Notes under the pieces: generated by a model | The model's database searches: none | Told to the model about the DNA's origin: nothing | What the model saw: the letters and a program-made list of their open reading frames with translations, nothing else | Assembly: GCA_905233245.1 (NCBI GenBank) | Contig: CAJODK010000002.1 | Coordinates: 50-64,049, forward strand | From: an uncultured Prevotella sp. | GTDB taxonomy: Bacteria; Bacteroidota; Bacteroidia; Bacteroidales; Bacteroidaceae | Reading direction: 5' to 3' | Length of the DNA stretch: 64,000 bases | Position numbers and translations under genes: made by a program | Part shown: in pieces, positions 6,037 through 64,000 of the stretch | Layout: every line of letters begins with the position of its first letter | Position numbering within the stretch: the first letter of the stretch is position 1

Positions 6037-8934
6037 ATGAGACTTCTTAGAATACTCACCGCAGCTATCATTGTCAATTGTCAATTGTCAATCGTCAATT
6101 TGGAAGCTGCCACCAACGATCCTATCGACCTCCAGACCTACACCCTAGACAACGGCCTGAAGGTATTCCTCTCCGTCAACAAGGAGAAACCACGCATCAC
6201 TGCCCACATAGCCGTCAATACAGGTTCGCGCAACGACCCTGCAGAGACAACGGGGCTGGCACATTATCTGGAGCACCTGATGTTTAAGGGTTCCAAGCAG
6301 TTTGGCACATCCAACTATGCCGCCGAGGAACCCCTGCTCAATAAAATCAGCGATTTGTATGAGGAATATCGCAAACTGACCGACCCTGCTGAACGTAAGG
6401 CTAAGTACCACGAGATAGACTCTGTGTCACAATTGGCAGCGAAGTACAATATCCCTAACGAATACGACAAGATGATGTCGGCCATAGGAAGTACGGGGAC
6501 GAATGCCTACACCTCTTATGACGTGACCTGCTACGTGGAGAATATCCCCGCCAACGAACTGGAACGCTGGTGCATGGTGCAGGGCGACAGATTCCAGAAT
6601 CTCGTCATGCGTGGTTTCCACACCGAACTGGAGGCTGTGTATGAGGAGAAGAATATCACCATGACGAAGGACGGCCGTAAGTCCAACGAGGCTATGCTGA
6701 AGAAACTCTTCCCAACTCACCCCTACGGCATGCAGACCACCATCGGTACACAGGAGCATCTGAAGAACCCTTCTCAGGTGAACATACGCAACTACTACAA
6801 CCGCTACTACGTGCCAAATAACATAGCTATCTGCATGGCTGGCGACCTTGACCCAGAGCAGACTGTAGCTATGATAAAGAAATACTTCGGCACTTGGAAG
6901 CCAGGCAATAACATCACCCCGCCATCGTACCCTGAGCTGCCTCGCATCACTGCACCACAGGATACTACCGTGATGGGACAGGAGACTGAGCACGTCATGC
7001 TGGGCTGGCGCCTCAAGGGAGCCTCTTCCCTGCAGAATGACACCATCTCTATGGTAGATATGCTGCTCTCTAATGGCAAGGTAGGTCTTCTGGATGTGGA
7101 CCTCGACCAAAAGATGAAGGTTATGGGTGTAGGTTCTGGCATATGGGACCTGAAGGACTACAGCATGTTTATTCTGAAGGGTACTCCCAATGAAGGACAG
7201 ACACTCGAGGAAGTGAAGCAGCTGATGCTCGACGAACTCAACAAACTCAAAAACGGCGAATGGGATGAGAGCCTCGTCCGCAGCATCGTCACCAACGAGC
7301 GTCTGGCTCAGCTGACAGCCTTCGACAGCAATGAATCACGCGTCAGCCAGATGGTGGACTGCTATATCACGGGCACTCCTTGGCAACAACACATAGAGCA
7401 ACTGGACCGCATCGACAAACTCACCAAGAGCGAGATTACGGCATGGGCAAAGGAGCATCTCAGCGATGGATACGTCTGTGTGTACAAGCGCAAGGGCGAG
7501 GATACCACTATCGTAAAGATTGAAAAACCTGCCATCACTGCCATACCAAGCAATCGCGATATGCAGAGTGACTTCCTCAAGAATTTCCTCAAAGTGGAGG
7601 TGGAGCCTATCCATCCGCAGTTTGTGGACTATGAGAAGGATATGACGATAGTGCCTATCTCAGGCTCTCAGAATAAGGAACTGCTCTACAAGCAGAACGA
7701 GAAGGACGACCGCTTCTCTCTGCAGTTCCGCTATGAGTTTGGCTCTAATGCCGACCGTCGCTACTCCGTAGCTAACAGCTATTTCGAACTCATCGGCACC
7801 AAGAAACAAACCCTCGACCAGATAAAGCGTAAATTCTATGACATCGCCTGCAACTACTCGTTTGCGGTAGGTGCCAAGAATATCACATTCTCACTCTCTG
7901 GTCTGCAGGAGAATATGCCTAAGGCACTCAAGATGCTCAATGAGGTCATCACGGGACTCCAGGCTGACACTGCCGTATATAATAAGTACATACAGCAAGT
8001 GCAGAAAAGCCGCAGGGAAGTACGCACAAATCAGAAAGCCTGCTACAGCGCTCTCGTGTCCTACGCAATGTATGGCGAGGACACCCCGCTGAAAGATGTG
8101 GCATCCATCAGTGAACTCAAGGCTACCAACCCTGAGGTATATACAAAACTAATCCAAGAGGTTTGGAGTATGCCTGCTACAGTGCTCTACTGGGGACCTG
8201 CTTCTGCAAAGGAAGTGCTCAAGGTCGTTAAAGACTATAAGAAACTTAAGAATCTTAAGGAGCCTGTCAACAAAGTGCGCACCCGACAACTCACCACTCA
8301 GGACGAGGTCATCATCGCTCCTTATGATGCCAAGAACCTCAACATGCGCATGATACACAATGAGAATCTGCCTCTCAATATCGATAATATGCCTCTCGTG
8401 GCACTCTTCAACGAGTATTTCGGAGGTTCGATGAATGCCATCGTATTCCAGGAACTGCGTGAGGCTCGCGGTCTGGCATACAATGCCTCGGCTACCTATG
8501 CAGTACCAAGCCGCAAGGATGAGACAGAGTACTATCAGGAGCATATCATCTCGCAGAATGACAAGTTGGCTGAATGCATCACAGTCTTCAAGCAAATCAC
8601 CGACACGCTGCCAGAATCTCCTAACCTCTTCAATACGGCACAGCAGAGCCTTATCAAGACTATCGCTGCCGCCCGCACTACCAAGATGGGTGTTCTTGCC
8701 AGTTACCTCGGCGCTAAGTATCTTGGTATAGACTATGACATCAATCGCCTGCTGTGGGAGAAGATTCCTACCCTCACGCTGCAGGATCTCGTGCGCTTCG
8801 AACAACAGTATATCAAGGGCAAGCCTCTGCGCTATGCCATACTTGGCAAGGAGGACGAAATCCTTCAGTCGGGTGCTCTCAGCGGGTTCCAGAATATCCG
8901 CCGCTTAACCCTCAATGACATCTTCCCAGAATGA
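6037..8934 (+). CDS. Secreted M16 (insulinase-family) zinc peptidase
   Basis: HYLEH (HxxEH), TNAYT, ELREARGLAY, N-terminal signal peptide. Confidence 0.92.
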   Translation: MRLLRILTAAIIVNCQLSIVNLEAATNDPIDLQTYTLDNGLKVFLSVNKEKPRITAHIAVNTGSRNDPAETTGLAHYLEHLMFKGSKQFGTSNYAAEEPLLNKISDLYEEYRKLTDPAERKAKYHEIDSVSQLAAKYNIPNEYDKMMSAIGSTGTNAYTSYDVTCYVENIPANELERWCMVQGDRFQNLVMRGFHTELEAVYEEKNITMTKDGRKSNEAMLKKLFPTHPYGMQTTIGTQEHLKNPSQVNIRNYYNRYYVPNNIAICMAGDLDPEQTVAMIKKYFGTWKPGNNITPPSYPELPRITAPQDTTVMGQETEHVMLGWRLKGASSLQNDTISMVDMLLSNGKVGLLDVDLDQKMKVMGVGSGIWDLKDYSMFILKGTPNEGQTLEEVKQLMLDELNKLKNGEWDESLVRSIVTNERLAQLTAFDSNESRVSQMVDCYITGTPWQQHIEQLDRIDKLTKSEITAWAKEHLSDGYVCVYKRKGEDTTIVKIEKPAITAIPSNRDMQSDFLKNFLKVEVEPIHPQFVDYEKDMTIVPISGSQNKELLYKQNEKDDRFSLQFRYEFGSNADRRYSVANSYFELIGTKKQTLDQIKRKFYDIACNYSFAVGAKNITFSLSGLQENMPKALKMLNEVITGLQADTAVYNKYIQQVQKSRREVRTNQKACYSALVSYAMYGEDTPLKDVASISELKATNPEVYTKLIQEVWSMPATVLYWGPASAKEVLKVVKDYKKLKNLKEPVNKVRTRQLTTQDEVIIAPYDAKNLNMRMIHNENLPLNIDNMPLVALFNEYFGGSMNAIVFQELREARGLAYNASATYAVPSRKDETEYYQEHIISQNDKLAECITVFKQITDTLPESPNLFNTAQQSLIKTIAAARTTKMGVLASYLGAKYLGIDYDINRLLWEKIPTLTLQDLVRFEQQYIKGKPLRYAILGKEDEILQSGALSGFQNIRRLTLNDIFPE
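6070..6100 (+). repeat. (TTGTCAA)4 heptamer in the signal-peptide coding region (IVNCQLSIVNL)
   Basis: Read directly from the sequence. Confidence 0.9.
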
Positions 8935-9698
8935 ACATTCTGATTTTAGAAGATGACATATTTGTGTATCACCAGTTGTGCGAAATGCTCGACACAATAG
9001 TGCCTGATGCCAACATCATAGGTCCATTGTCAACGGTAAAGCGTGGAAAAATATTCTTCACTGCCAGAAGGGAATGGATAGACCTCATCATAGCAGATAT
9101 ACAACTGAAGGACGGACTCTGCTTTGAGGCTCTCAATAAGGCACCTGACGACGTGCCTGTGATATTCATATCCGACACCGAAGACTATGCCATGCATGCC
9201 TTTGGCTATAATAGTCTTTCGTATCTGCTTAAACCTATAACAGAGGAAACACTGTGTGGGGCCATAAGAAAGTCCTGCACCAGACTGATAACTGACATAG
9301 ACCGACTGGAATGGAAATCACTGGTAAAAGAGCAGATGGGGTATCGCAAGCACTTCACCGTCAACACATTCAGCGGAGAAAGAGTGATAGCCATTGAGGA
9401 GGTGCGTTACTTTGTATCAGAAGGCAAGAATACCTATATGGTGCTACACGACAGCACTTCGTTTGAAATAGGCATGTCGCTTACAGATACTGCCAAGCAA
9501 TTGGACCCACATCGTTTTATGCGCGTGAACCGTAAATACATAGTACCGATAAGCGAAATAGACACTCTGGAGCGCGACATCAACGGCAAGGAGAAACTAC
9601 TACTGAAAGAAGGAGTAAGGAATCCCATAATAATAATAAGCCGCGACAAAAAGAACATTGTTCACAAATGGATAAATGGGGTGCACACAACACAATGA
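8931..9698 (+). CDS. LytTR-family response regulator
   Basis: Receiver domain ILEDD/DIQL/YLLKP plus LytTR LDPHRFMRVNRKYIV. Confidence 0.9.
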   Translation: MNILILEDDIFVYHQLCEMLDTIVPDANIIGPLSTVKRGKIFFTARREWIDLIIADIQLKDGLCFEALNKAPDDVPVIFISDTEDYAMHAFGYNSLSYLLKPITEETLCGAIRKSCTRLITDIDRLEWKSLVKEQMGYRKHFTVNTFSGERVIAIEEVRYFVSEGKNTYMVLHDSTSFEIGMSLTDTAKQLDPHRFMRVNRKYIVPISEIDTLERDINGKEKLLLKEGVRNPIIIISRDKKNIVHKWINGVHTTQ

Positions 9699-9736
9699 GA
9701 ATGTGCAAATGAGCGACGGTTCAATCCCCAAAAACT

Positions 9737-9797: not shown

Positions 9798-9802
9798 CAA
9801 GT

Positions 9803-14569: not shown

Positions 14570-16975
14570 ATGACCATCCAGTTCAACATACACTACGGGG
14601 CTCAGCAGGGCGAAAACCTGTTTGTGAACATCGAGCAGGAAGATGGCTCTGTGCGTTCTCTGCGCATGGATAATGTGGACTACGAACTGTGGCAGTGCAG
14701 TTCACAATTCATAGTTCACAGTTCACAGTTACGCTACTACTACTCAGTTAAGAATGGGGACTGTGAGATAAACAAAGAATGGACTACACAGGCTCACATG
14801 ATACAGGTGGGCAGAAATGGCGTCAACCGCTACACCACCTGGGACACATGGATTTTCATTCCCCATGACTCCTATCTCTACTCATCGGCCTTCACCGAGT
14901 GTATCAATCGCAGAGAGAGGCGCGAGGGCTATCTCAGGGATAATCCCTGCTCCATACGCCTCAAGGTCAGGGCTCCGCAGTTGCGTAGCTACGAGAGATT
15001 GGTCATGATAGGAGGTCATCCTGTGTTGGGTGAATGGGACCTGGGGCGTGCCATTCCCTGTACCGAACAGGCTCCTAATGAGTGGGTCTGTGAAGTCAGT
15101 GCCGAATACCTAGCTGACCAGGACATTGACTTTAAATTTGTCGCAGTAGGCGGTGAGGACTTGTGGGAAACCGAGGACAACCGACGTCTCCACGTTCCAA
15201 GACTCAAGCAAGGTGAGGTGGTGGAATATGAACTGTCACAAGCATTCTTCAAGATATGGAACGTGAAGGTAGCTGGCACTCTCATTCCCGTCTTCTCCCT
15301 GAGAACAGAGGGCAGTTTCGGAGTAGGCGACTTCGGTGACCTCAAGCGTATGATAGACTGGGTAGCCGACACCAATCAGCGTGTGCTTCAGGTGCTGCCT
15401 ATCAACGACACTACGGTATATCATACGTGGAAGGATTCCTACCCCTACTCCTGCATCTCCATTTTCGCATTGCATCCGCAGTATGTAGATTTCCGCCAAT
15501 TACCTCCCCTTAAAGACAAGAAGAAGGCAAAGGAACTGGAGACAGTACGTCGTCAGCTCAACCAACTCCAGAGCATCGATTATGAACGTATGATACAGGC
15601 CAAGGAGGAGTATCTGGAACTACTCTTCAAGCAGGAAGGTAAGGAAGTTCTCGCTTCTGAGGATTTCCGACAGTGGTTCAATGAGGAGGAACGATGGCTC
15701 GTGCCTTACGCAGAGTTCTGCGTAAATCGCGACAAAAAACTCTCACCTCTCACCTCTCCGCTCGGCTCTGCCGCTTTGCACAGCAAAGACCTCTCACCTC
15801 AGAAATACTACTACATCCAATACGTGCTGGCTTGCCAGATGAAGAGTGCACACGAGTATGCGCGTTCTAAGAATATCATCCTCAAGGGCGACATACCCAT
15901 AGGCGTGCAGCGCAACGGTTGTGATGTGTGGCAGGAACCCCAATACTTCAATCTCAACGGACAGGCAGGAGCACCACCAGATGACTTCTCTACAGAAGGT
16001 CAGAACTGGGGCTTCCCTACCTACAACTGGGACAACATCCTCAAGGACGACTGCCAGTGGTGGGTGCGCCGTTTCCAGAATATGCAGAAGTATTTTGATG
16101 CCTACCGCATTGACCACGTCTTAGGTTTCTTCCGCATCTGGGAGGTTCCAATGCCCGATACGAGTGGCATCCGCGGACAGTTCCAGCCAGCCCTCGCTCT
16201 CTCCAAAGAAGAGATTGCTGGCTATGGTGTAGAACTGAGGGAAGAGCTCTTCCTTAGGGACCACAAGAATCCAGAACTCTACCATCCCTTCATCGCTGCG
16301 CATCGCACCCCTTGCTATCAGTCACTTTCGGAAGACGAGAAACAGCGTTTCAACCGTCTGTATGATGATTTCTTCTATCACCGCAACGACCACTTCTGGC
16401 AGGAGCAGGCTATGAAGAAACTCCCTCGTCTCATTGAGGCCACTCGTATGCTCGTCTGTGCTGAGGACCTCGGTATGATACCTCAGTGCGTGCCTACCGT
16501 CCTCAATGACCTTCGCATTCTCTCCCTTGAGGTGCAGAGTATGCCTAAGGAGTACGGCCAGCGCTTCGGTCATCCTGAGCGCTATCCTTACCGCAGTGTA
16601 TGTACCATAGACAGCCATGACATGCCTACCCTGCGTATGTGGTGGGATGAAGACTATGACAGAGCACAGGAGTACTACTCTACTATACTCGGTCGTCGTG
16701 ACGAAGCCCCTCACCCACTCCCTGCATGGCTGGCGCGCGACATTATGCTGCGAAATCTACAGTCAGAGTCCATGCTCTGCATTCTATCGCTGCAGGACTG
16801 GTTGGCTATCAGCGACGAACTCCGCCTCGCTGATGCCTCAGCCGAGCGCATCAATATCCCTGCCAACCCTAATCACTACTGGCGCTATCGCATGCATATC
16901 ACAATCGATGAGATGCTCGCTAACCACCGTTTCTGTGATGATGTGGCAGAGATGATCAAACAGAGCGGGAGATAA
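14570..16975 (+). CDS. malQ: 4-alpha-glucanotransferase (GH77 with N-terminal CBM20 domains)
   Basis: GVGDFGDL, KGDIPIG, GAPPDDF..GQNWGFP, RIDHVLGF, AEDLG, HDMPT. Confidence 0.93.
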   Translation: MTIQFNIHYGAQQGENLFVNIEQEDGSVRSLRMDNVDYELWQCSSQFIVHSSQLRYYYSVKNGDCEINKEWTTQAHMIQVGRNGVNRYTTWDTWIFIPHDSYLYSSAFTECINRRERREGYLRDNPCSIRLKVRAPQLRSYERLVMIGGHPVLGEWDLGRAIPCTEQAPNEWVCEVSAEYLADQDIDFKFVAVGGEDLWETEDNRRLHVPRLKQGEVVEYELSQAFFKIWNVKVAGTLIPVFSLRTEGSFGVGDFGDLKRMIDWVADTNQRVLQVLPINDTTVYHTWKDSYPYSCISIFALHPQYVDFRQLPPLKDKKKAKELETVRRQLNQLQSIDYERMIQAKEEYLELLFKQEGKEVLASEDFRQWFNEEERWLVPYAEFCVNRDKKLSPLTSPLGSAALHSKDLSPQKYYYIQYVLACQMKSAHEYARSKNIILKGDIPIGVQRNGCDVWQEPQYFNLNGQAGAPPDDFSTEGQNWGFPTYNWDNILKDDCQWWVRRFQNMQKYFDAYRIDHVLGFFRIWEVPMPDTSGIRGQFQPALALSKEEIAGYGVELREELFLRDHKNPELYHPFIAAHRTPCYQSLSEDEKQRFNRLYDDFFYHRNDHFWQEQAMKKLPRLIEATRMLVCAEDLGMIPQCVPTVLNDLRILSLEVQSMPKEYGQRFGHPERYPYRSVCTIDSHDMPTLRMWWDEDYDRAQEYYSTILGRRDEAPHPLPAWLARDIMLRNLQSESMLCILSLQDWLAISDELRLADASAERINIPANPNHYWRYRMHITIDEMLANHRFCDDVAEMIKQSGR
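14698..14730 (+). repeat. (TTCACAG)4 heptamer, in-frame in malQ (SSQFIVHSSQL)
   Basis: TTCACAA TTCATAG TTCACAG TTCACAG. Confidence 0.85.
15740..15800 (+). repeat. Twin-hairpin cassette in (TCTCACC)n, copy 1, in-frame in malQ
   Basis: 60/61 identical to 57563-57623; encodes LSPLTSPLGSAALHSKDLSP. Confidence 0.95.
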
Positions 16976-17699
16976 CCTCGTAACTCTCTTTCATAAGGTA
17001 TTCGATATTTTCCCGACCCTTACCTATCGGATAGATAGGCTCATGTATTGTGAGGGTCAGCGGGTGCCACGTGATAAACTTTCCGTCCCTATGGCGTGGC
17101 AATACCTCATAGGAACCTTTGATGGTCAGTGGTACAACGGGCAACTGCAGTTCGTCGGCCAGAGTGAAGGCACCCCTTTTGAAGGGTTGCATCTTGCCAT
17201 CTCTGGTCCTCGCGCCCTCTGGGAATACCATCAGCGACGCACCACCTTCCAGAGCCTTCTCTGCCTGTTGGTAGGTGTGCTTCACTGCAGCCCTTGAACT
17301 CTTATCCACGTAGATATATCCTGCCCTCTTGCAACCGATGCCGAGGAAGGGAACTTTCTCCAATTCTTTCTTCAGCATCCACCTTATCTCAGCGCCCAGA
17401 TATCCACACACCAAGAATATATCGTACGCCCCTTGGTGGTTGGCAACGTAGATACAACCTCCCCCCAACCCCCTCCCAAAGAGGGGGAGTTTTCCTTCGA
17501 CCTTTACTGGCAACAGCGAGGCTCGCATGATTATCTTCGCCCACCAGCGGGAGGCAAAGGAGCCCCACCAATCAGGATTGGGCATATAGCGGCACATCAC
17601 TGCCATAGTGGTGCCAGCCCATGCCGACGCCAATACCACGACGGGTGCCAGCACGATGCACTGATATATCTTATATGCGAAATTTAATAGGCTGGCCAT
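16956..17699 (-). CDS. plsC: Lysophospholipid/1-acyl-sn-glycerol-3-phosphate acyltransferase
   Basis: NHQGAYD (HX4D), FPEGART, FKRGAF. Confidence 0.88.
   Translation of the reverse strand: MASLLNFAYKIYQCIVLAPVVVLASAWAGTTMAVMCRYMPNPDWWGSFASRWWAKIIMRASLLPVKVEGKLPLFGRGLGGGCIYVANHQGAYDIFLVCGYLGAEIRWMLKKELEKVPFLGIGCKRAGYIYVDKSSRAAVKHTYQQAEKALEGGASLMVFPEGARTRDGKMQPFKRGAFTLADELQLPVVPLTIKGSYEVLPRHRDGKFITWHPLTLTIHEPIYPIGKGRENIEYLMKESYEVISRSV
17458..17489 (-). repeat. C/G-rich palindromic element, in-frame in plsC (LPLFGRGLGG)
   Basis: CCCCTC-CCAAA-GAGGGG hairpin plus G-rich tail on the - strand. Confidence 0.8.
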
Positions 17700-19017: not shown

Positions 19018-19725
19018 TTAGTTCTTCACCCCCACCATTATATCACGATTATGATTCGCTGCTTCCATATACTCCTTCACGTATGGGTCATTCTTGAAGC
19101 GCTCCGTAGCCTTGGTCATCAGCACCTCAATCCAGGTGGTGAGTATAGGAAATTCGTAGGAGCTCGTAGCTATCTTGAAAATATACGGACCCAGACAGTT
19201 GTCGAAATTCTCCGTTATGAAGGTCGATACCAGCTTGTCCTCCTCCATCATCAGTTGCGCCTCTCGCTCCGCCAGACGGCGGTTTACCTCATCCACATCC
19301 TCGCCATTCATGATAGCCTGACTCTGCTGATGCGCCAAGTCCTCCAGCTGCTCCGTTATCTTGCGGTAGCGCATTGTAAAGACATTCAGCGTATCATTCA
19401 TTGGAGTGCCCGTGCACGTCTGCTTCTGCAGGTTGAGCGCTACCTGTATATCACCGTCCTCCAGTACTACAGGCAGGATAGGCTGCTCATCAATGCAGAG
19501 CGTCACGATGCGCACCGAGTCAAGCGACCCCTTGAATGAGAACTTGCCGTGCACCATATCGCATGAGTCCAGATTCACTATCTTGTCGTCCACCATATCC
19601 TTCAGGTACAACATGCGGCCGTCAGCATTCTGCAGGTCTGACGAACCCTGAATGTTGTAGTTGGTGCAGGCTGTAAACACCGTTCCCAGCATGACCGCTG
19701 ATATGGTCTTTAGAAGTGAGCGCAT
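19018..19725 (-). CDS. DUF4369-domain lipoprotein
   Basis: Lipobox VFTAC; LDSCDMVHGKFSFKG; GTPMNDTL. Confidence 0.75.
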   Translation of the reverse strand: MRSLLKTISAVMLGTVFTACTNYNIQGSSDLQNADGRMLYLKDMVDDKIVNLDSCDMVHGKFSFKGSLDSVRIVTLCIDEQPILPVVLEDGDIQVALNLQKQTCTGTPMNDTLNVFTMRYRKITEQLEDLAHQQSQAIMNGEDVDEVNRRLAEREAQLMMEEDKLVSTFITENFDNCLGPYIFKIATSSYEFPILTTWIEVLMTKATERFKNDPYVKEYMEAANHNRDIMVGVKN

Positions 19726-19753: not shown

Positions 19754-19787
19754 GAGAGAATTATTGAGATAGAAAAAGAAATTTTTA

Positions 19788-26880: not shown

Positions 26881-26889
26881 TAAAGCTTT

Positions 26890-50177: not shown

Positions 50178-52933
50178 TGAAGTTCCTAGAGGCCATTGCC
50201 AAAGACATATTGGAGAAGTACGGAACAGACCTTCACGAGGTGACGGTTGTGTTCCCCAACAAGCGTGCTGCACTGTTTCTCAATAAGGCGCTGACGGAAT
50301 TGTGCGACCACCCCATTTGGAGTCCGCGATACACCACCATCAGCGAACTCTTCCAGTCGTTGTCTGAACTCCGACTGGCTGACCGCATCAAACTCATCTG
50401 CGAACTCCACAAATCCTATTGCCATGTGACTGGCAAGGACGAGACATTGGAGCAGTTCTATGGCTGGGGCGAGGTGATGCTGAGCGATTTTGATGATATC
50501 GACAAGCATCTGGGCGATGCCAAGAAGATTTTCACCCTGCTCAGCGACATCCATGAACTAGATTCCATCGATTATCTCACGCCGGAGAAGGTAGAGATTC
50601 TGAAAGGATTCTTCCGCAATTTCTCTGCTGACCACTCTACGGTGCTCAAAGAGCGCTTCCTCGAACTTTGGAATCGTTTCTATGACATCTACGAGCACTA
50701 TCGCCAGTCTTTACTATCACAAGGCATAGCATACGAAGGTATGCTCTACCGAAAGACAATAGAAATCTCTAACCTCTCCGCTCCAGCTCTGCTGGCTTGC
50801 AAGGCAAGACCTCTCACCTCTCACCTCTTTATCGGCTTCAATCTCCTCACTCCCGTTGAGCAGTTGCTCATAACAAAATTGGGAGGCAAGATATACAACG
50901 ATGACGATACGTCATGCCCACCAGAGGAAGTGTCCATCATCTCCTCACCCACCGACGACCTGCAAGCCCGCTACGTCACCCAGTGGCTCACCCCTGAGCG
51001 CATCCAGGCTGGCAGACGAACTGCCATAGTACTCGCTGACGAGGGATTGCTGGAGACAGTGCTCCACTGCCTACCATCTGGCATCAGTCTCAATATCACT
51101 ACGGGTTATCCACTATCGCAGGCCTCCATCACTTCGCTGGTGAAGGTGGTGACTACCTTGTTGCAAAGGGGTAGTTACACACTCCACAACATCAACGCCG
51201 TGCTCCGTCACCCCCTGACTCGCTACCTCTCACTCGAGGTGACGACATTACACGACCGCCTCAACCGCGATATGATATACTACCTCACGCCAGAGGACGT
51301 GTCTGTGGACGATAATCTGCGCCAACTCTTTGCCCCACTCCAAGACAAAGAGAGTCCCCTCGAACTCACCAATCGTCTCATATGGCTCACACGCACCATC
51401 GCTAAAAGGGTTCAAGAAGTTCAAGGGGTTCAAGAGGAGTCTCAATTGGATAGTGAAGCCCTCTACCGTATGTTCACCATCCTCAATCGCATCAAGTCGC
51501 TGATAGAGGATGACGACATCAGTATAAGCGCTACGCTCTACGCCAAACTCCTCAATCAGGTAATACAAACGACCACGATACCTTTCCACGGTGAACCCAT
51601 TGAGGGCATACAGGTGATGGGTGTTTTGGAGACGCGCAATCTGGACTTCGACCACGTGCTATTGCTCTCATGCAACGAGGGCAACCTGCCTGCACGCATC
51701 AACGACACCTCTTTCCTGCCCCACTCCATTCGTCAGGGTTACGACCTCACCACCATCGAGAATAAGGTGAGCATCTACCATTACTACTTCGACCGCCTTC
51801 TACAGAGAACAAAGGACGTCACCATCCTCTACAACAACTCCACCAACGATGGCAAGACTGGTGAGATGTCCCGGTTCATGCTCCAACTCATAGCAGAGAG
51901 CCCTATACCTATCAAGCGCTACGCCCTGCAAGCTACAACGGGAACGCCAACGGAAACGGGAACTGAGTCTGTTGACAAAACTCCTGAGATGGTGCAGCAG
52001 ATGCTAGGTCGTGCATTCCTTTCGCCCTCGGCATTAGGGAAATACTTGAGATGTCAGATGGAGTTCTACTACCAATATATCGAGAATCTCGATGAGGATG
52101 AAGACAGTGACCAGGAAGAGATGGACAGCCGTGCCTTTGGCACCATCTTCCATCGTGCTGCCGAACTCCTCTATCAGGACTTTGTGGGCAAGGTAGTGCC
52201 TCGTGACTACATGGAACGTCTGCTTCGTGAGAAGGGACATATTTCCCTCCGACGCTTCACCGAACAAGCTTTTCGCGAGAAGCTCTTCAACCTTGAGGGA
52301 AACGCACGTAAAACTCCGAAACTCAACGGTTTACAGGTCATAAATTTTGAGATAGTGGTGCAATTTCTCATCAATCTCCTGCGCTACGACCTCTCCCTCA
52401 CCCGTCTGGAAATAGTGGCACTTGAGAAGACGGTCAAGGGAACAATTTCTGTTCCAATTTCAGTTCCCGTCAACGTTAATATCGGTGGCAACATCGACCG
52501 CCTCGATATCGTCACCGACACTGACGGAGTGCGCCGCATGCGAGTGATAGACTACAAGACAGGCCGTCTCACACGTCGCCTCAATCTCAATAACGTCGAT
52601 GAAATCTTCATGCCCTCGAAACTCGCCGCTCACGCCAATTACTTCCTCCAAGCCCTCCTCTACGCCAGCATCCTCAACGACCAAACGACCAAACAACCAG
52701 ACAACCAGATATCCACTGGCCTTCTCTACGTCCAGCACGCTCATCAGGAGGACTACGACCCGCTGCTATCCATTGATGGCCACCCCATAAAGGATGCTTC
52801 CATCTACATGGAACAGTTCCGTGAGGGACTCACACGTCTCATCTCAGAGATACTCGACACCAATGTGCCATTCCGTCGCACCGACAACGACACTTTCTGC
52901 ACCGACTGCCCATTCCATCACCTCTGCTATTAG
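50177..52933 (+). CDS. AddB-like PD-(D/E)XK nuclease-family protein
   Basis: VFPNKRA, PFHGEP..GIQVMGVLETR, SPSAL..C, GNIDRLD, IDYKTG, C-terminal CxxC Fe-S ligands. Confidence 0.9.
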   Translation: MKFLEAIAKDILEKYGTDLHEVTVVFPNKRAALFLNKALTELCDHPIWSPRYTTISELFQSLSELRLADRIKLICELHKSYCHVTGKDETLEQFYGWGEVMLSDFDDIDKHLGDAKKIFTLLSDIHELDSIDYLTPEKVEILKGFFRNFSADHSTVLKERFLELWNRFYDIYEHYRQSLLSQGIAYEGMLYRKTIEISNLSAPALLACKARPLTSHLFIGFNLLTPVEQLLITKLGGKIYNDDDTSCPPEEVSIISSPTDDLQARYVTQWLTPERIQAGRRTAIVLADEGLLETVLHCLPSGISLNITTGYPLSQASITSLVKVVTTLLQRGSYTLHNINAVLRHPLTRYLSLEVTTLHDRLNRDMIYYLTPEDVSVDDNLRQLFAPLQDKESPLELTNRLIWLTRTIAKRVQEVQGVQEESQLDSEALYRMFTILNRIKSLIEDDDISISATLYAKLLNQVIQTTTIPFHGEPIEGIQVMGVLETRNLDFDHVLLLSCNEGNLPARINDTSFLPHSIRQGYDLTTIENKVSIYHYYFDRLLQRTKDVTILYNNSTNDGKTGEMSRFMLQLIAESPIPIKRYALQATTGTPTETGTESVDKTPEMVQQMLGRAFLSPSALGKYLRCQMEFYYQYIENLDEDEDSDQEEMDSRAFGTIFHRAAELLYQDFVGKVVPRDYMERLLREKGHISLRRFTEQAFREKLFNLEGNARKTPKLNGLQVINFEIVVQFLINLLRYDLSLTRLEIVALEKTVKGTISVPISVPVNVNIGGNIDRLDIVTDTDGVRRMRVIDYKTGRLTRRLNLNNVDEIFMPSKLAAHANYFLQALLYASILNDQTTKQPDNQISTGLLYVQHAHQEDYDPLLSIDGHPIKDASIYMEQFREGLTRLISEILDTNVPFRRTDNDTFCTDCPFHHLCY
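50767..50827 (+). repeat. Twin-hairpin cassette, copy 2 (covariant), in-frame in the AddB-like gene
   Basis: TCTAACC TCTCCGCT CCAGC-TCT-GCTGG CTTGC-AAG-GCAAG ACC TCTCACC TCTCACC. Confidence 0.9.
52676..52707 (+). repeat. (AACGACCA)4 octamer, in-frame (NDQTTKQPDNQ)
   Basis: Read directly from the sequence. Confidence 0.85.
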
Positions 52934-52970
52934 TCCCCCGCTTCTTATTAAAAAAACTTAAAGGCACCAC

Positions 52971-53018
52971 AACTTTCAACCTTCAACTTTCAACTCTCAA
53001 CTAAAATCAGTACCTTTG
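52971..53018 (+). promoter_or_regulatory. (ACTTTCA)4 tract plus -7 box TACCTTTG (53011-53018), rarA promoter
   Basis: Read directly from the sequence; ATG follows 8 nt after the box. Confidence 0.8.
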
Positions 53019-53026: not shown

Positions 53027-54298
53027 ATGGCGCCATTGGCAGAACGTTTGCGTCCTAAGACGCTCGATGAATACATAGGACAGAAGCACCTCGTAGGGGA
53101 AGGAGCGGTGTTGCGACGAATGATTGATTCGGGGCACATCAATTCGTTTATCCTATGGGGGCCTCCGGGAGTGGGCAAGACCACGCTGGCGCAAATTATC
53201 GCCAACAAACTCGACACCCCTTTCTATACTCTCTCCGCCGTCACCAGTGGTGTCAAGGACGTTCGTGATGTCATCGACAAAGCCAAGAACAATCGTTTCT
53301 TCTCACAGACTTCCCCCATTCTCTTCATCGACGAGATACACCGTTTCTCCAAGTCTCAGCAGGACTCCCTGCTCGGTGCCGTAGAGCGAGGTATCGTGAC
53401 CCTCATCGGTGCTACGACGGAGAATCCCTCCTTTGAGGTCATCCGTCCTCTGCTCTCCCGTTGCCAACTCTACATCCTTAAGTCCTTGGAGAAGGACGAC
53501 CTCATGGAACTCCTCAATCGCGCCGTCACTACCGACGAGGAACTCCGCAAACTCGACATACGCCTCACCGAGACCGAGGCCCTGATGCGCTACAGCGGTG
53601 GTGACGCCCGTAAGTTGCTCAATATCCTGCAACTCGTCGTCGAGTCAGAGTCAAGTAATACGATAGAGATTACCAACGACCTTGTGGTAAGTCGCCTGCA
53701 ACAGAATCCTATGGCGTACGACAAGCAGGGTGAAATGCACTACGACATCATCTCAGCCTTCATCAAGTCCATACGAGGCAGCGACCCCGATGCTGCACTC
53801 TATTGGATGGCACGCATGATAGAGGGTGGCGAAGACCCTGAGTTCATTGCCCGCCGCATGGTCATCAGTGCCTCCGAGGATATCGGCCTTGCCAACCCCA
53901 ATGCTCTCCTGCTCGCCAATGCCGCCTTTGACACGGTGATGAAGATAGGATGGCCAGAGGCACGCATCGCCCTTGCTGAGGCCTGCGTATATCTCGCCAC
54001 CTCACCCAAGTCCAACTCCGCCTATTGTGGCATAAACGACGCCCTTGCCCTGGTCAAGGAGACTGGCAATCTACCCGTGCCCTTGCATCTGCGCAATGCT
54101 CCTACTAAGCTCATGGCGGAACTAGGTTACAGCGACGGTTACAAGTACCCTCACGACTACCCCGACCACTTCACCCCACAACAGTATATGCCTGACCAAC
54201 TCCGTGACCACCGCATCTGGCATGCCCAGCATCAGCCTATCGAGGAACGTCAGTATCAGCAGATGATTCGTACATGGGGAGAGAGATTTAAGGATTAA
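53027..54298 (+). CDS. rarA: Replication-associated recombination protein A (MgsA/RarA)
   Basis: PLAERLRP, GPPGVGKT, DEIHRF, GATTENP, SAFIKSIRGSD, VPLHLRNAPT. Confidence 0.96.
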   Translation: MAPLAERLRPKTLDEYIGQKHLVGEGAVLRRMIDSGHINSFILWGPPGVGKTTLAQIIANKLDTPFYTLSAVTSGVKDVRDVIDKAKNNRFFSQTSPILFIDEIHRFSKSQQDSLLGAVERGIVTLIGATTENPSFEVIRPLLSRCQLYILKSLEKDDLMELLNRAVTTDEELRKLDIRLTETEALMRYSGGDARKLLNILQLVVESESSNTIEITNDLVVSRLQQNPMAYDKQGEMHYDIISAFIKSIRGSDPDAALYWMARMIEGGEDPEFIARRMVISASEDIGLANPNALLLANAAFDTVMKIGWPEARIALAEACVYLATSPKSNSAYCGINDALALVKETGNLPVPLHLRNAPTKLMAELGYSDGYKYPHDYPDHFTPQQYMPDQLRDHRIWHAQHQPIEERQYQQMIRTWGERFKD

Positions 54299-54314
54299 AG
54301 ATTATAGACTAAAG

Positions 54315-57086
54315 ATTAAGAAACTACTCTCCATAGCGCTACTCTTTCTTGCCATAACAATCGTTGGGGCAGGTGGTAATTCCTCCCCTCTCTCACAGAG
54401 AGGGGCTGGGGGTGAGTCCGATACCGACACTATCGCCCTCGACTCCCTTCATCAGGCCATCCTCGCCTACAATAAGGCTGTCGATGACTCCATCAAGGCC
54501 GACTCCCTCAATCGCACTAAGAAGAGCACCATCGAGGCGCCAGTGGATTACGTTGCCAAGGACTCCTTCGTCTATTACGCTGACACCAAGCGCGCCTTCC
54601 TCTATGGCACTTCCAATGTGAAGTACGAGAATATGGACCTCAAGGCGGAGAAAATCAATATGTCTCTCGACAGCAATATCGTACGTGCCACGGGTGCTAT
54701 GGATACCGTCAAGAAGCAGCGCTACGGCCTGCCTGTCTTCATGATGGGCAGCGACAAGTACGAGACCGACACTATGGCATTCAATTTCAAGTCCAAGCGT
54801 GGTCTCATACAGAATGCCTACACCCATCAGGAGGATGGTTTTCTGCTCTCAGAGCGCTCTAAGCGCGACAGTTCGGGCACCTTCTATCTCAAGCGCGGCC
54901 GCTACACCACCTGTGACGACCCTCACCCTGACTTCTACATCGCTCTCACCCGCGCCAAGGTGCGTCCTGGCAAGGATGTCATCTTCGGTCCTGCATATCT
55001 CGTAGTACAGGATGTACCTTTGCCACTTGCCATACCGTACGGTTTCTTCCCCTTCACGAAGAGTTACTCCAGCGGTTTCATCATGCCAACCTATGGTGAT
55101 GAGATGGACAGAGGCTTCTACCTGCGTGACGGTGGCTACTATTTCGCCATCAGTGACAAGATTGACCTCAAGCTCCTCGGCGAAATCTTCACCAAGGGTT
55201 CATGGGGCATCAGTGCCGCCTCCAACTACCGTGTGCGCTACAAGTACTCCGGACAGTTCTATGCCTCCTATCAGGACTCGCGCACTGGTGATGAGGGCAT
55301 CGACCAAACCAGAAACACCAGTTTCAAGATACAGTGGAGCCACACTCAAGACTCGAAGGCCAACCCCTACACCAGCCTGCGTGCCAGTGTCAATTTCGCC
55401 TCCATCAGTTACGAGCGCAACAACCTCACCTCCATGTACAATCCCACCACGCTGACGCAGTCCACTCGTACCTCGTCAATATCGTGGAGCACAGGATTCA
55501 GCAGTCTGGGCATGACCCTCAGCGGTGGTACCAATATCACACAGCAGATGCGTGACTCCACCATCGACCTCACTCTCCCTGACCTCAATATCTACATCTC
55601 GCAGTTCTATCCCTTCAAGCGCAAGAATGCAGTAGGCAAACAGCGTTGGTACGAGAAAATCAACATGTCCTACACAGGACGCATCACCAACACTATCCAC
55701 GCCAAGGAAGACCGTATCTTCAAGGCCAATCTCGCTCGCGAATGGCGCAACGGCTGGATGCACACCATACCTGTCAAGGCCACCTTCAATCTGGCCAAAT
55801 ACATCAATGTTACGCCGTCCTTCAATTTCACTGACCGCATGTACACCCAGCGCATCAAGCGTTCGTGGGATCAGGACACACAGAAGGAGGTACTCGACAC
55901 CGTACAGGGATTCTACAATGTCTATAACTGGAACATGGCGATTGACCTCAATACGAAAATATACGGATTCTTCGTCCCCAACCGTCGCATCTTTGGCGAC
56001 AAGGTGCAGGCCATACGTCATGTCTTCACCCCCAAGGTGGGTTTCACCTACGCCCCCGACTTCTCCACCTCCCGCTACGGCTACTACGACACCTATCAGA
56101 AGGTAGATGCCGATGGTGTGCCCTTCGGCGACCCTGTCAAGTATTCCTACTACGCCAACAATGTCTTTTCAGGACCTGGCTCAGGCAAGACAGGCCGTGT
56201 CACCTTCTCCATCGACAATAATATCGAGGCCAAGATACGCTCCGACAAGGACTCTACCGGCATACGCAAGATAAGTATCATCGACCAACTCGCCGCCACC
56301 ATGTCCTACAATATGGCTGCCAAGGAGAAACCCTGGAGTGACCTCAATGTCAATCTGCGCCTCAAGTGGTGGAAAAGCTACACCTTCAGTATGAATGCCG
56401 TCTTCGCCACCTATGCCTACGAACTCGATAAGAACGGCAATCCCTACGTGGGCAACCGCACCGAGTACAGCAAGGGACGCTTCGGCCGCTTCCAGGGTAT
56501 GTCGCAGAATATCCACTACACCATCACTCCTGAGAAGATACGCCGACTCTTCGGACGCAACAAGGACAAAGACAAGAAGGATGAAGGAAAGAAGGATGAG
56601 ACCGTCGATACTGGCGTAGAGACCAATATAGACCCCACCATGACGGCCGCTGCCAATGCCGCAGAGAAGAAGAATGCAGGCCTCGCTGAGACCGACGATG
56701 ACGGCTACCTCAAGTTCTCCATGCCTTGGAGCCTCACCATCAGTTATGGTATCACCATGCGTGAGAACACCGCAGGCACCTTCGACAAGGAGCGTATGCG
56801 CTATCCATACAAGTACACCCAGAATCTCAATTTCTATGGCAATATACGCCTTGCTGACGGTTGGAATATCTCCTTCAACAGCGGCTACGACTTCGACCAG
56901 CACAAACTCAGTATGACCACTGCCTCCCTGGCTCGTGACCTTCACTGTTTCTCCATGTCCTGCTACGTAGTTCTCGCCCCTTACACCTCCTACAATTTCT
57001 CCTTCCGCTGCAACGCCTCCACCCTCACCGATGCCCTCAAGTACGACAAGCGTTCCAGCTACAGCAACAGTGTGAAATGGTACTAA
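54315..57086 (+). CDS. lptD: Putative LPS-assembly outer-membrane protein LptD; N-terminus extended to a probable ATT start at 54315
   Basis: YTTCD..HP, PFTK..SSG.IMPTYG, RDLHC, C-terminal WY; the frame is open upstream of 54543 and encodes a signal peptide. Confidence 0.8.
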   Translation: MKKLLSIALLFLAITIVGAGGNSSPLSQRGAGGESDTDTIALDSLHQAILAYNKAVDDSIKADSLNRTKKSTIEAPVDYVAKDSFVYYADTKRAFLYGTSNVKYENMDLKAEKINMSLDSNIVRATGAMDTVKKQRYGLPVFMMGSDKYETDTMAFNFKSKRGLIQNAYTHQEDGFLLSERSKRDSSGTFYLKRGRYTTCDDPHPDFYIALTRAKVRPGKDVIFGPAYLVVQDVPLPLAIPYGFFPFTKSYSSGFIMPTYGDEMDRGFYLRDGGYYFAISDKIDLKLLGEIFTKGSWGISAASNYRVRYKYSGQFYASYQDSRTGDEGIDQTRNTSFKIQWSHTQDSKANPYTSLRASVNFASISYERNNLTSMYNPTTLTQSTRTSSISWSTGFSSLGMTLSGGTNITQQMRDSTIDLTLPDLNIYISQFYPFKRKNAVGKQRWYEKINMSYTGRITNTIHAKEDRIFKANLAREWRNGWMHTIPVKATFNLAKYINVTPSFNFTDRMYTQRIKRSWDQDTQKEVLDTVQGFYNVYNWNMAIDLNTKIYGFFVPNRRIFGDKVQAIRHVFTPKVGFTYAPDFSTSRYGYYDTYQKVDADGVPFGDPVKYSYYANNVFSGPGSGKTGRVTFSIDNNIEAKIRSDKDSTGIRKISIIDQLAATMSYNMAAKEKPWSDLNVNLRLKWWKSYTFSMNAVFATYAYELDKNGNPYVGNRTEYSKGRFGRFQGMSQNIHYTITPEKIRRLFGRNKDKDKKDEGKKDETVDTGVETNIDPTMTAAANAAEKKNAGLAETDDDGYLKFSMPWSLTISYGITMRENTAGTFDKERMRYPYKYTQNLNFYGNIRLADGWNISFNSGYDFDQHKLSMTTASLARDLHCFSMSCYVVLAPYTSYNFSFRCNASTLTDALKYDKRSSYSNSVKWY
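54381..54419 (+). repeat. C/G-rich palindromic element, in-frame just after the LptD signal peptide
   Basis: CCCCTCTCT-CAC-AGAGAGGGG followed by CTGGGGGTGAG. Confidence 0.85.
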
Positions 57087-58387
57087 GCGAGTTTATAGCC
57101 CTGCACAAGGACGACGACATCCGTACCCTCGCACTGCAGAAGATGCCTGAGGGCATAGATGCCAAGTGGGTACTCCAGCAGATAGAGGGCTACCAGATAG
57201 CCAAGAAGAAACTCCCAACATGGGTTCAAGGGTTCAAGAGTTCCAAAGTTCAAGGGGTTCTGTTCCCTCCCCGCCTCTCTCTCGAACAATGCTCCAGTGA
57301 GTCCACTGCCCGCTACAAAGCGCAGTTGGTTCTGCACTCCCCTTTTACTCCCCCTTCTACTCCCACTTTTACTCCCTCTTTTATAGATTTAACCGCTGGC
57401 TTCGGTGTTGACTTCTCCTATATGGCGCAAGGTTTTCAGCACGCCATCTACGTGGAGCCAAACGAAGAACTCTGCCACATCGCCCGTCACAATCTTCCCA
57501 TTCTCGGACTCCCCCATGCCCAGGTCATCAACACCACCTGTGAGCAATTTCTCTCCTCTGGACTCTCACCTCTAACCTCTCCGCTCGGCTCTGCCGCTTT
57601 GCACAGCAAAGACCTCTCACCTCTAACCATCTACCTCGACCCCTCCCGTCGTTCCTCCTCCGGTCATAAGGTTATGACCATCGAAGACTGCACCCCCAAT
57701 CTCCTCGACCTGCAGGACCGTCTCCTTGAGATAGCCGACACCGTCATCGTCAAACTCTCCCCCATGCTCGACATCACCGATGCCCTGCGCAAACTAAAGG
57801 GCGTCACTGAGGTGCATGTTGTGAGTGTAAAGAATGAGTGCAAGGAACTCCTGTTTGTGATGAAAGGAGAGGGAGGCGTCACCATCCACTGTGTGAATCT
57901 CGAGACGGATGAGCCAGACTTCATTGCCCCCCTTCAGCCCCAAGGGGCTACAAATGTAGCAATTGCAGAAGACGTATCAGCTGGTGGGCTTCTCTTTGTC
58001 CCTAACAGTTCCATCCTCAAGGCAGGTCTTCAGGATGTCTTCGCCCAGCGCTACGGACTACAGAAACTTGCACCCAATTCCCACTTGTATGTTCAAGAGT
58101 GCAAGGGGGCAAGGGTTCAAGAGGTTCCCGTTCCCGTTAACGTTCCCGTTGAACTCCCAGCCCGCCAGTTCCGCCTCCTCGGCATCAGCGATTTCAGCAA
58201 GGCAAGCCTCAAGACATTCCTCAGGGACATTCCGCAAGCCAATCTCGCAGTGCGCAATTTCCCCTCCGATGTGGCGACCTTACGCCGCCGCCTGAAAATC
58301 AAGGAAGGTGGCAGCGATTATCTCTTCGCCACCACCCTCGCCGACGGTACCCACGTCCTTCTCCGTTGTCAGAAGGTCACTTCATGA
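57077..58387 (+). CDS. Class I SAM-dependent methyltransferase with THUMP-like domain
   Basis: SLEQCSS, DLTAGFGVD, YLDPSRR, KLSPMLD, C-terminal VRNFP..LKIKEGG. Confidence 0.85.
   Translation: MVLSEFIALHKDDDIRTLALQKMPEGIDAKWVLQQIEGYQIAKKKLPTWVQGFKSSKVQGVLFPPRLSLEQCSSESTARYKAQLVLHSPFTPPSTPTFTPSFIDLTAGFGVDFSYMAQGFQHAIYVEPNEELCHIARHNLPILGLPHAQVINTTCEQFLSSGLSPLTSPLGSAALHSKDLSPLTIYLDPSRRSSSGHKVMTIEDCTPNLLDLQDRLLEIADTVIVKLSPMLDITDALRKLKGVTEVHVVSVKNECKELLFVMKGEGGVTIHCVNLETDEPDFIAPLQPQGATNVAIAEDVSAGGLLFVPNSSILKAGLQDVFAQRYGLQKLAPNSHLYVQECKGARVQEVPVPVNVPVELPARQFRLLGISDFSKASLKTFLRDIPQANLAVRNFPSDVATLRRRLKIKEGGSDYLFATTLADGTHVLLRCQKVTS
57563..57628 (+). repeat. Twin-hairpin cassette, copy 3, in-frame in the methyltransferase
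   Basis: 60/61 identical to 15740-15800 and encodes the same peptide. Confidence 0.95.
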
Positions 58388-60524: not shown

Positions 60525-60529
60525 CGTCT

Positions 60530-61540: not shown

Positions 61541-61569
61541 TTCAATTATCAATTATCTATTTTCAATTT

Positions 61570-62133
61570 TCATAGAAAAAGCCAGTTCTGTATCATTCTC
61601 TTACCATCGGGCGTCAGCACGCTCTCTGGGTGAAACTGTATGCCCCTCACGTTGAGGTCCCTGTGGCGCATCGCCATTATCTGTCCCTCGTCGCTCTCGG
61701 CTATCACCTCCAGGCAGTCGGGCAGTCCCTCGCGTGACACCACCCACGAGTGGTAGCGCCCTACGGTGATGTCCTTTTCCACACGGCTGAATATGGGGTC
61801 TTCCTTTACTATGTGGCAAGGGCTCTCCACGCCGTGGAATACCTCAGAGAGGTTCTCCAGTCGTGCACCAAACACCTCACCTATGGCCTGATGTCCCAGA
61901 CAGACGCCCAGTATGGGTTTTCTGCCTGCATAGGTGCGTATGACGTCCATCAGCAGTCCCGCCTCAGAGGGGATGCCGGGACCTGGCGAGAGGAGTATCT
62001 TGCTGTAGGGCTTCAGGTCGGCGAGCTCAAACTGGTCGTTGCGCACCACATCGACCTCTGCACCCAGTTCCTTCACCAGATGACTCAGATTGTATGTAAA
62101 CGAGTCGTAATTGTCTATAATAACTATCTTCAT
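61570..62133 (-). CDS. trpG: Anthranilate synthase component II
   Basis: IDNYDSF, SPGPG, GVCLGHQ, RYHS, QFHPES. Confidence 0.96.
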   Translation of the reverse strand: MKIVIIDNYDSFTYNLSHLVKELGAEVDVVRNDQFELADLKPYSKILLSPGPGIPSEAGLLMDVIRTYAGRKPILGVCLGHQAIGEVFGARLENLSEVFHGVESPCHIVKEDPIFSRVEKDITVGRYHSWVVSREGLPDCLEVIAESDEGQIMAMRHRDLNVRGIQFHPESVLTPDGKRMIQNWLFL

Positions 62134-63512: not shown

Positions 63513-63535
63513 AATTCTCTTTTTAACCTTTGACC

Positions 63536-64000
63536 TTAGACCTTAGACCTTAAATACGTCTCAATATCCTTATCCCCACGTCCGCTGACCGTCAGCACCA
63601 CCACGTCGTCGGGCTTGAATGACAGTTTCTCCAGTGCAGCGATGGCGTGGGCACTCTCTATGGCAGGTATGATACCCTCCATGCGCGTCAGTTCGTATCC
63701 GCCCCTGATAGCCTCGTCGTCGTTGATGCTCAGCACCTCCGTGCGACCCTGCTTCGCCATGTTGCAGTGCATAGGTCCCACACCGGGGTAGTCCAGACCC
63801 GCAGAGATGGTGAACGCCTCCTGTATCTGTCCGTCCTCATCCTGCATCACCAGCATCTTCGCTCCGTGCAGTATGCCCGTCGTGCCACGATGTATCGTCG
63901 CCGCCGTGCGGTCGGTCATATAGCCCTGTCCGCCAGCCTCTGCCAGCACTATCTTTACCCTCTCGTCGTCCATATAGTGGTATATCGTGCCCGCAGCATT
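63536..64000 (-). CDS. trpB: Tryptophan synthase beta chain, 3' part (5' end outside the window)
   Basis: ISAGLDYPGVGP, EGIIPAIESAHA, SGRGDKD. Confidence 0.95.
   Translation of the reverse strand, partial: NAAGTIYHYMDDERVKIVLAEAGGQGYMTDRTAATIHRGTTGILHGAKMLVMQDEDGQIQEAFTISAGLDYPGVGPMHCNMAKQGRTEVLSINDDEAIRGGYELTRMEGIIPAIESAHAIAALEKLSFKPDDVVVLTVSGRGDKDIETYLRSKV

Follow-up and report, generated by a model that had tools for sequence, protein, structure and literature searches.

A stretch of 64,000 nt from the genome of an uncultured Prevotella sp. (contig C2, positions 50-64049; hereafter the window) contains 19 tandem arrays of 7-nt units, which belong to a population of such arrays found at hundreds of loci in this genome. 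The source is a metagenome-assembled genome (MAG) of 1.93 Mb, in 49 contigs and 82% complete, from the rumen Prevotellaceae. The arrays exceed chance expectation, lie at gene ends, in promoters, signal peptides and protein loops, differ between strains by multiples of 7 nt and turn over between species. They are probably heptanucleotide simple-sequence arrays made and remodelled by 7-nt slippage across this clade of rumen Prevotellaceae, with the stop codons on one strand arising mainly as a by-product and the genomic context setting the orientation. A sequence-only reading of the window had drawn attention to these stop codons, and had proposed that one repeat family yields either new loops or new gene termini and spacers according to its orientation. 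Its arithmetic, that three copies of such a unit close all three frames on one strand, is correct.

Period-7 arrays were called with Tandem Repeats Finder (TRF) in the window and in the whole genome, and chance expectation for their number was taken from genomes simulated with order-2 and order-5 Markov models. The genome yields 470 period-7 rows, against 40-46 in the simulated genomes. At period 7 there are 92 exact runs of at least three copies, compared with 11 at period 6 and 16 at period 8; periods 6, 8, 9 and 12 also exceed expectation genome-wide, 4-16 times, but stay below period 7. Most arrays have 4-5 copies, and 121 unit classes are present, the abundant units including TGAAAGT, TGAGAGG, AATTATG, TAAAGTA and TGACAAT. 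Intergenic DNA, 7.7% of the genome, contains or borders two thirds of the arrays, and a third are translated, in signal peptides and loops. The arrays typically measure about 32 nt, whether they sit in promoters, signal peptides, loops or spacers. The tandem head-to-tail arrangement of a unit of 5-11 nt, the excess over composition and the change of copy number by whole units, which define long simple-sequence repeats (LSSRs), are all observed here.

The 19 arrays of the window are as follows, with coordinates in the window.

3052-3085, plus strand: 4.9 copies of AACTTTC, promoter-upstream, 6 nt 5' of the -7 box TATCTTTG of the gene at 3108-4427; the stop-bearing strand is antisense.
6070-6100, plus strand: 4.4 copies of ATTGTCA, read as IVNCQLSIVNL within the signal peptide of an M16 peptidase (6037-8934).
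14698-14730, plus strand: 4.7 copies of CAGTTCA, read as SSQFIVHSSQ close to the N-terminus of a GH77 4-alpha-glucanotransferase (14570-16975).
15740-15758, plus strand: 2.7 copies of CTCTCAC, read as LSPLTSP within the same GH77 gene.
17704-17735, minus strand: 4.6 copies of sense GACCTCT in an amidohydrolase/dihydroorotase-like gene (17671-19014, minus), read as SLTSDLSPLTS 10 residues from the C-terminus.
18102-18132, minus strand: 4.4 copies of sense ACTATCA, translated in the same amidohydrolase/dihydroorotase-like gene.
19784-19821, no strand assigned: 5.4 copies of TTTCAAC/TTTAAAC in the divergent spacer between genes 19018-19725 (minus) and 19852-20715 (plus).
25474-25500, plus strand: 3.9 copies of CATAATG, directly 3' of the stop of an RND pump gene and translated at the N-terminus of OMF (25463-26854).
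26854-26885, plus strand: 4.6 copies of AAAGTTG, taking up the spacer between OMF, whose stop TAA (26852-26854) is at the array's 5' edge, and the following ATG (26890).
27765-27796, plus strand: 4.6 copies of CTTTCAA, promoter-upstream, 6 nt 5' of TACCTTTG; the downstream gene encodes ribosomal protein L19 (27898-28263).
33267-33295, minus strand: 4.1 copies of AACTTTC on that strand, 5' of the -7 box of a methylmalonyl-CoA mutase gene (31407-33215, minus).
46110-46150, minus strand: 5.9 copies of sense TAGAGTA/TAAAGTA, holding the MBL stop TAG (46144-46146), with an ATG directly 3' on the gene strand; the next called gene runs from 46102.
49584-49612, plus strand: 4.1 copies of CCCTCAT, read as PSSLIPHPSS in a variable loop of an AddA/UvrD-like helicase.
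50809-50828, plus strand: 2.9 copies of ACCTCTC, read as RPLTSHL in a PD-(D/E)XK AddB-like nuclease.
52970-53002, plus strand: 4.7 copies of CAACTTT, promoter-upstream, 8 nt 5' of TACCTTTG of rarA.
54288-54319, plus strand: 4.6 copies of TTAAAGA; copy 1 equals the native rarA codons AAG GAT, the stop TAA (54296-54298) is in copy 2, and the array extends into the lptD leader region.
57563-57581, plus strand: 2.7 copies of CTCTCAC, read as LSPLTSP in the gene at 57077-58387.
61542-61572, minus strand: 4.4 copies of sense TGAAAAT/TGATAAT, with the trpG stop TGA (61570-61572) as first triplet and the trpD ATG 1 nt past the array.
63526-63552, minus strand: 3.9 copies of sense TAAGGTC, with the trpB stop TAA (63536-63538) in copy 3, LRSKV array-coded and the trpE ATG at 63512.

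This set covers every tract and unit named in the sequence-only reading, apart from a weak one placed at 50767, where about two loose copies are found and the true tract lies at 50809-50828. The gene ends at which it located a stop inside the repeat likewise hold one: the first triplet at trpG, copy 1 at MBL, copy 2 at rarA, copy 3 at trpB, and at OMF a TAA straddling the 5' edge. Pfam supports the gene names OMF, MBL, MgsA/rarA, trpG, trpB and trpE. The gene at 57077-58387 further holds tandem arrays of 8-nt (57339-57383), 12-nt (57222-57256) and 6-nt (58091-58150) units.

Strains that are 98.7-99.98% identical differ inside four arrays by indels of exactly 7, 7, 7 and 14 nt, which make up four of the six internal indels of at least 4 nt. 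The array at the trpB end is one unit (7 nt) shorter in strain L124, turning the terminus ...LRSKV* into ...LRSKVKG*. The promoter array at 33267 has a 7-nt deletion in one strain and a 14-nt deletion in another. One 7-nt unit of the array translated at 18102 is missing from a 99.98%-identical strain, in which gene calling splits the gene into two open reading frames (ORFs) of 322 and 124 aa. A 72-nt insertion at about position 10346 of L146 (strain contig matching the window, ~57.4 kb) contains the Illumina adapter core AGATCGGAAGAG and is an assembly artefact.

Between species the arrays turn over at conserved positions. By its rarA gene the genome is nearest to rumen Prevotellaceae MAGs, above all to UBA4332, with 94% amino-acid and ~75% nucleotide identity. 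At that distance of ~75% nucleotide identity, the nearest relative also carries arrays at the trpB/trpE, trpG/trpD, rarA/lptD and MBL junctions, which differ in unit and length from those of the window. In 20-kb samples of 13 same-genus genomes, 0-5 arrays are present in each, compared with ~0.45 expected, and the units are species-specific, again mostly of the form TCA[A/C]NNN. Arrays of 10-15 copies occur in same-genus genomes. The clearest series is at the end of rarA, where a heptamer array starts at the stop codon in at least 12 of 80 Prevotellaceae; the unit is different in each and resembles that gene's own last codons plus stop. Some of these arrays lengthen or alter the C-terminus. 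The rarA product of the window keeps the ancestral C-terminus WGERFKD, and the native AAG GAT T forms the array's copy 1. The promoter of the same gene differs from that of the 80 relatives examined, all of which have an ordinary T-rich upstream region without the array at 52970-53002.

Two further junctions were noted. The lptD frame (54267-54545) stays open across the array at the end of rarA; it specifies KKLLSIALLF..., a typical signal peptide that is conserved at the protein level in the nearest relative. No ATG, GTG or TTG lies upstream of this signal peptide in either genome, its 5' end falls within heptamer arrays in both, and gene callers begin lptD 230-320 nt further downstream, at a GTG or ATG; lptD may use a non-canonical start, ATT or ATA. 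At the addA-addB junction of the nearest relative (L103, G041), TAACTTG/TAACTGG arrays flank two copies of a ~40-nt element, GGGACTCCGAGCTTTGCTCGCCTGAGCACCTACGGAGCGCAA; in the window, unlike this array-bearing junction, addA and addB overlap.

In the preferred account, slippage would create the arrays and resize them in 7-nt steps, and those now present would be what each context tolerates or uses. Polymerase slippage as the enzymatic mechanism would fit the whole-unit differences between strains. The presence of stops on one strand would then have three sources: units that are A+T-rich (~70%) and strand-skewed, of which the purine-rich strand would almost always carry a stop; arrays growing in tiny spacers, which would usually begin in the last codons and native stop of the upstream gene and take that stop into the unit; and a preferential drawing of units from the TCA[A/C]NNN motif family.

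The first source was assessed with letter-permuted units, whose A+T content is 70% as in the arrays. A stop triplet on at least one strand is present in 49% of random genomic 7-mers, 83% of permuted units and 92% of all 470 arrays. Permutation overlooks the genome-wide rarity of TAG, hence a second null was drawn from composition-matched genomic and intergenic heptamers. Among the 330 well-formed arrays (score at least 40), 98% carry a stop on at least one strand versus ~86% from composition-matched heptamers, and seven are stop-free on both strands versus 43-46 expected. The stop content of the arrays is mostly due to composition; stop codons consist of a T and then purines, so the purine-rich strand carries them and its pyrimidine-rich complement cannot.

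What exceeds composition is uneven among the three stops. TGA/TCA occurs in 200 of the well-formed arrays against 105-124 expected, about a twofold excess; TAG occurs in 24 against ~90, about a fourfold deficit; and TAA, although it terminates 59% of the genes, is neutral (146 against 142-161). Translated arrays show the same preference from the other strand: sense-strand TCA is found in 71 of 83 arrays in coding sequences, 2.7-fold above the 26.6±4.2 expected, with TTA and CTA depleted. Distinct units were also counted, since arrays are not mutually independent, and TCA is then in 17 of 24 against 7.6±2.1. The excess over composition is a preference for the TGA/TCA motif rather than for stops as such, and the complement of this motif happens to be a stop.

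The second source would operate at gene ends. Co-directional spacers are tiny (median 12 nt), so that a growing array tends to begin in the last codons and stop. Where the unit contains a single stop, the gene's own stop lies in copy 1, 2 or 3 in 47, 26 and 15 cases, a skew to copy 1 (chi-square p = 1e-4), and nearly half of the gene-end arrays encode the last 2-6 residues, for instance the LRSKV end of trpB. The idea that arrays supply new gene termini therefore holds in part: about half of these arrays encode terminal residues and the trpB C-terminus is altered in a strain, whereas that of rarA is ancestral. Spacer type did not separate seeding at stops from association with starts, arrays being present in 12.5% of convergent, 13% of co-directional and 26% of divergent spacers.

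Orientation does follow context, as the sequence-only reading had claimed. Arrays in coding sequences have the open strand as sense in 132 of 158 cases, and arrays overlapping a stop have the stop-bearing strand as sense in 118 of 122. Promoter-less co-directional spacers hold 74 sense-stop and 15 sense-open arrays (p = 1.5e-10); by a count of all 134 arrays there, 119 are sense-stop and 85 overlap the upstream stop. Much of this sorting is selection or construction, as that reading had in part allowed. Arrays that overlap a stop contain one by construction, and a sense strand inside a gene must be stop-free, so that sorting in these two classes is tautological. The clean test uses arrays entirely 3' of the stop in promoter-less co-directional spacers (n=49). 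The strand composition of these arrays predicts 34.1±2.5 sense-stop cases, and 37 are observed (P = 0.17). All of the excess comes from the stop-overlapping arrays of these spacers (82 of 85 sense-stop against 67.5 expected). As the clean test is at expectation, the raw bias of 74:15 comes down to strand composition. The sorting by orientation is real but in part tautological; what is left of it follows from leader composition and promoter phasing.

In genes, only the stop-free strand could serve as sense, and arrays would persist where signal peptides and variable loops accept them. In operon spacers the A-rich strand would be sense, as in the ordinary leaders of a lineage poor in Shine-Dalgarno sequences, with the array stopping about 12 nt before the next ATG. 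The sense strand of array leaders is 45% A and 8% C, against 42% A in the ordinary leaders of the genome, and the distance from the 3' end of a spacer array to the next ATG has a median of 12-13 nt. Predicted structure is weaker in array leaders than in ordinary spacers (mean minimum free energy -2.4 vs -4.1 kcal/mol, p = 0.014); a benefit as an unstructured spacer, or as a promoter element, may accrue to some arrays.

For the commonest family, ACTTTCA, the rule that gene ends govern orientation fails, and the -7 promoter box takes their place. Of its 71 arrays, 50 are located 4-8 nt 5' of the Bacteroidetes -7 box TAnnTTTG, always reading ACTTTCA in the direction of transcription, and with the box as anchor 48 of them are in perfect register. 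A conserved element, TTAAtAAAnnCTAAAA, stands 6-10 nt 5' of these promoter arrays. AATTCTT arrays behave likewise upstream of the -7 box in 10 of 13 cases. A heptamer-array promoter is present at about 19 of the 42 tRNA genes and also at rplS and rarA. ACTTTCA and AATTCTT arrays would be held in fixed register to the -7 box by their promoter context.

The translated arrays also keep to particular places and registers. Those of ATTGTCA/ATTTTCA are translated in about 25 signal peptides in a single peptide register, I[IV]N[CF]Q[LF]SI[IV]N followed by xxAQ, and in the M16 peptidase (6037-8934) the array replaces the ordinary h/c-region of the orthologues. The closest orthologue of this peptidase (L082, G003) has a degenerate 8-nt array, ATTCTTCA ATTTTTCA ATCCTTCA ..., at the equivalent signal-peptide position, so repeat-built leaders recur with other periods. 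CCTCTCA arrays, read as SPLTSHL, are located in loops, and the AddA array at 49584-49612 occupies a segment that has unrelated sequence in the nearest relative. The proposal of one family with two fates applies to 9 of 29 recurrent families, which occur both in coding sequences and over gene-end stops in opposite orientation, translated in genes and stop-bearing at ends; 10 others are largely restricted to one context. Neither many abundant stop-free families nor a lack of orientation bias at gene ends, which the sequence-only reading had named as evidence against itself, was found.

Several observations fit poorly with local slippage and by-product stops. Exact period-7 runs have a sharp second mode at 32-35 nt (15 of 32 nt, 5 of 33, 8 of 34 and 3 of 35) and none are longer, unlike the broad distribution expected from a free random walk of slippage. 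About ten units recur at tens of unrelated loci, the most frequent at 71, which pure local seeding does not predict, and the nine families that span coding sequences and gene ends would not be predicted by it either. In the ACTTTCA arrays a T-to-C variant unit, AACCTTC, recurs inside the array in the same copy as counted from the -7 box, which suggests common descent or function. The preference for a TCA[A/C] core is left without explanation in the slippage model. By distinct unit, 6 of 58 are stop-free against 11.5±2.3 expected (one-sided p ~0.04). The genome-wide gene coordinates, moreover, are approximate, coming from an in-house caller based on ORFs and codon usage, which within the window agrees with independent gene calls.

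A more elaborate account takes these features as its starting point. A clade-specific process preferring TCA[A/C]NNN might write arrays of set size (~32 nt, 4.6 copies), which would since have been domesticated as standard parts: as the -12 to -45 region in many housekeeping promoters and in about half of those of tRNA genes, as the hydrophobic cores of about 25 signal peptides, and as structure-free spacers with stops in all frames in a lineage that initiates without Shine-Dalgarno pairing. This is possible but is given a low probability.

Rated about as low, or slightly lower, is the idea of one dispersed self-copying family, to which the single family with two fates of the sequence-only reading corresponds, and in which ~32-nt arrays with a TCA[A/C] core spread ready-made, by ectopic conversion, templated insertion or some other enzyme not yet recognised, and selection keeps the tolerated orientation. 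The recurrence of units at up to 71 loci, the families found in both orientations, the uniform length with its sharp mode, the variant common to different ACTTTCA arrays and the 2.7-fold TCA enrichment in coding sequences would all follow from it, as would the distribution of ACTTTCA arrays, which the nearest relative and few other genomes of the genus contain. It accords badly with the 121 different units, with rarA-end units that differ by species and each resemble the local last codons, with junction arrays whose units differ between near relatives, and with strain differences that consist of unit gain or loss in place and include no new insertions. No conserved flanks were seen beyond functional motifs (the -7 box, the upstream TTAAtAAAnnCTAAAA and the signal-peptidase site). 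A mobile element was considered on the same grounds and rejected: conserved termini or flanks and target-site duplications would be its hallmarks, but the 71 ACTTTCA arrays, each inspected with 30-90 nt of flanking sequence, have nothing but promoter motifs in common there. Loss of mismatch repair as the cause of the arrays was also rejected, since a check covering MutS found two MutS-family genes in the genome.

It is likewise improbable that the stops are themselves the selected function, with gene-end arrays acting as all-frame translational insulators between cistrons whatever the copy number, and with adaptive orientation. The 74:15 bias in promoter-less co-directional spacers is what an insulator would produce, and among distinct sense units in spacers 44 of 52 contain a stop against 36.1±2.6 expected (P = 0.0025). 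The strain comparisons have the same flavour: loss of a unit in L124 shifts the trpB stop by just two codons, with no read-through, and loss of one unit from a stop-free array in a coding sequence frameshifts the gene. However, the arrays entirely 3' of a stop have no sense-stop excess; those overlapping a stop include it by construction; the orientation bias equals the ordinary A-rich leader composition of the genome; and TAG is depleted and TAA merely neutral, despite the latter being the predominant stop of the genes.

Chance or a metagenome-assembly artefact, by which short repeats are produced or collapsed, might be suspected in a MAG of 49 contigs, but is highly improbable given the tenfold excess over simulated genomes, the presence of the same arrays in independent assemblies (other samples, different k-mer sizes) that differ by whole units only, the arrays of relatives that include the cultured-strain records Segatella copri and Xylanibacter brevis, and a length of ~32 nt that is far shorter than the reads. 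The pattern search had a reversed pattern as its built-in control, but reversal merely rotates the repeat, so that this control carried no information.

Slippage-made simple repeats of this kind have precedents, and the arrays belong to the known class of heptanucleotide simple repeats. As relayed by PMC4679880 and PMC4692102, in many bacteria no kind of LSSR is commoner than the heptanucleotide one, and its proposed cause is slippage of the polymerase (Mrazek, Guo & Shah 2007). In these second-hand accounts the LSSRs resemble the present arrays in the excess of tandem 7-nt units, the mostly intergenic location, the sporadic phylogenetic distribution, the proposed slippage and the rarity in coding regions of units that are not multiples of three. 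Compared with what is relayed there, the arrays described here comprise more than 100 unit types in place of one or a few, are translated in a third of cases, form families that are partitioned by context and have a sharp mode at ~32 nt.

The closest parallel is TAACTGA, described by MacGregor 2015 (PMC4679880) as intergenic direct repeats in marine Beggiatoaceae, some Cyanobacteria and five Bacteroidetes. That work already made the point about stops in all frames: forward repeats contain stops in all three frames and so occur at ORF ends, while the reverse strand is a translatable heptapeptide repeat. The forward arrays lie a few nt 5' of start codons, often over the stop of the upstream gene, and the spacer arrays of this genome are placed in the same way (119 of 134 sense-stop, a median of 12-13 nt to the ATG, 85 over a stop). 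The difference is that a single unit is involved there, related heptamers rarely repeating, whereas many units are present here, with TAACTGA outside the listed abundant families, and that promoter-phased and signal-peptide arrays are additional here.

Rehm et al. 2015 (PMC4692102) described the heptamers GGGAATC in Xanthomonas and GGGGA(C/T)T in Nostoc, with two Xanthomonas species having arrays between the same genes with extensive variation in length and sequence. Those units are G-rich and quadruplex-capable, whereas the present ones are A+T-rich and predicted to be unstructured. For promoters, the 7-bp repeats of hmw1A/hmw2A in Haemophilus influenzae are reportedly phase-variable (PMC8262952), and TTTTGAT heptads are reported in the ctxAB promoter of Vibrio cholerae (10.1101/2021.05.14.444153). 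As described, both resemble the present arrays in being promoter-region heptamer arrays of strain-variable copy number, and both differ in concerning few contingency or virulence loci, while here housekeeping promoters (tRNA genes, rplS, rarA) and hundreds of loci are involved. Phase-variable contingency loci are defined by a repeat in the promoter or ORF of a surface or antigen gene, where changes of unit number switch expression. Unit changes are seen here, one of which frameshifts the dihydroorotase-like gene; the hosts are housekeeping genes. A literature search found no paper on heptamer arrays in Prevotella. The short tandemly repeated repetitive (STRR) heptamers of heterocystous cyanobacteria, with the units CCCCAGT, TTGGTCA and CAACAGT, differ in unit from the present arrays, and the host here belongs to Prevotellaceae.

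For annotation, these results mean that gene ends, starts and signal peptides in rumen Prevotellaceae, part of an abundant gut and rumen clade, are often built of 7-nt arrays. A slip of one unit alters a C-terminus or breaks a gene, so that strain-to-strain "frameshifts" at the arrays are to be expected. More generally, a striking regularity can come from base composition together with seeding sites, and stops in all frames need not be selected.

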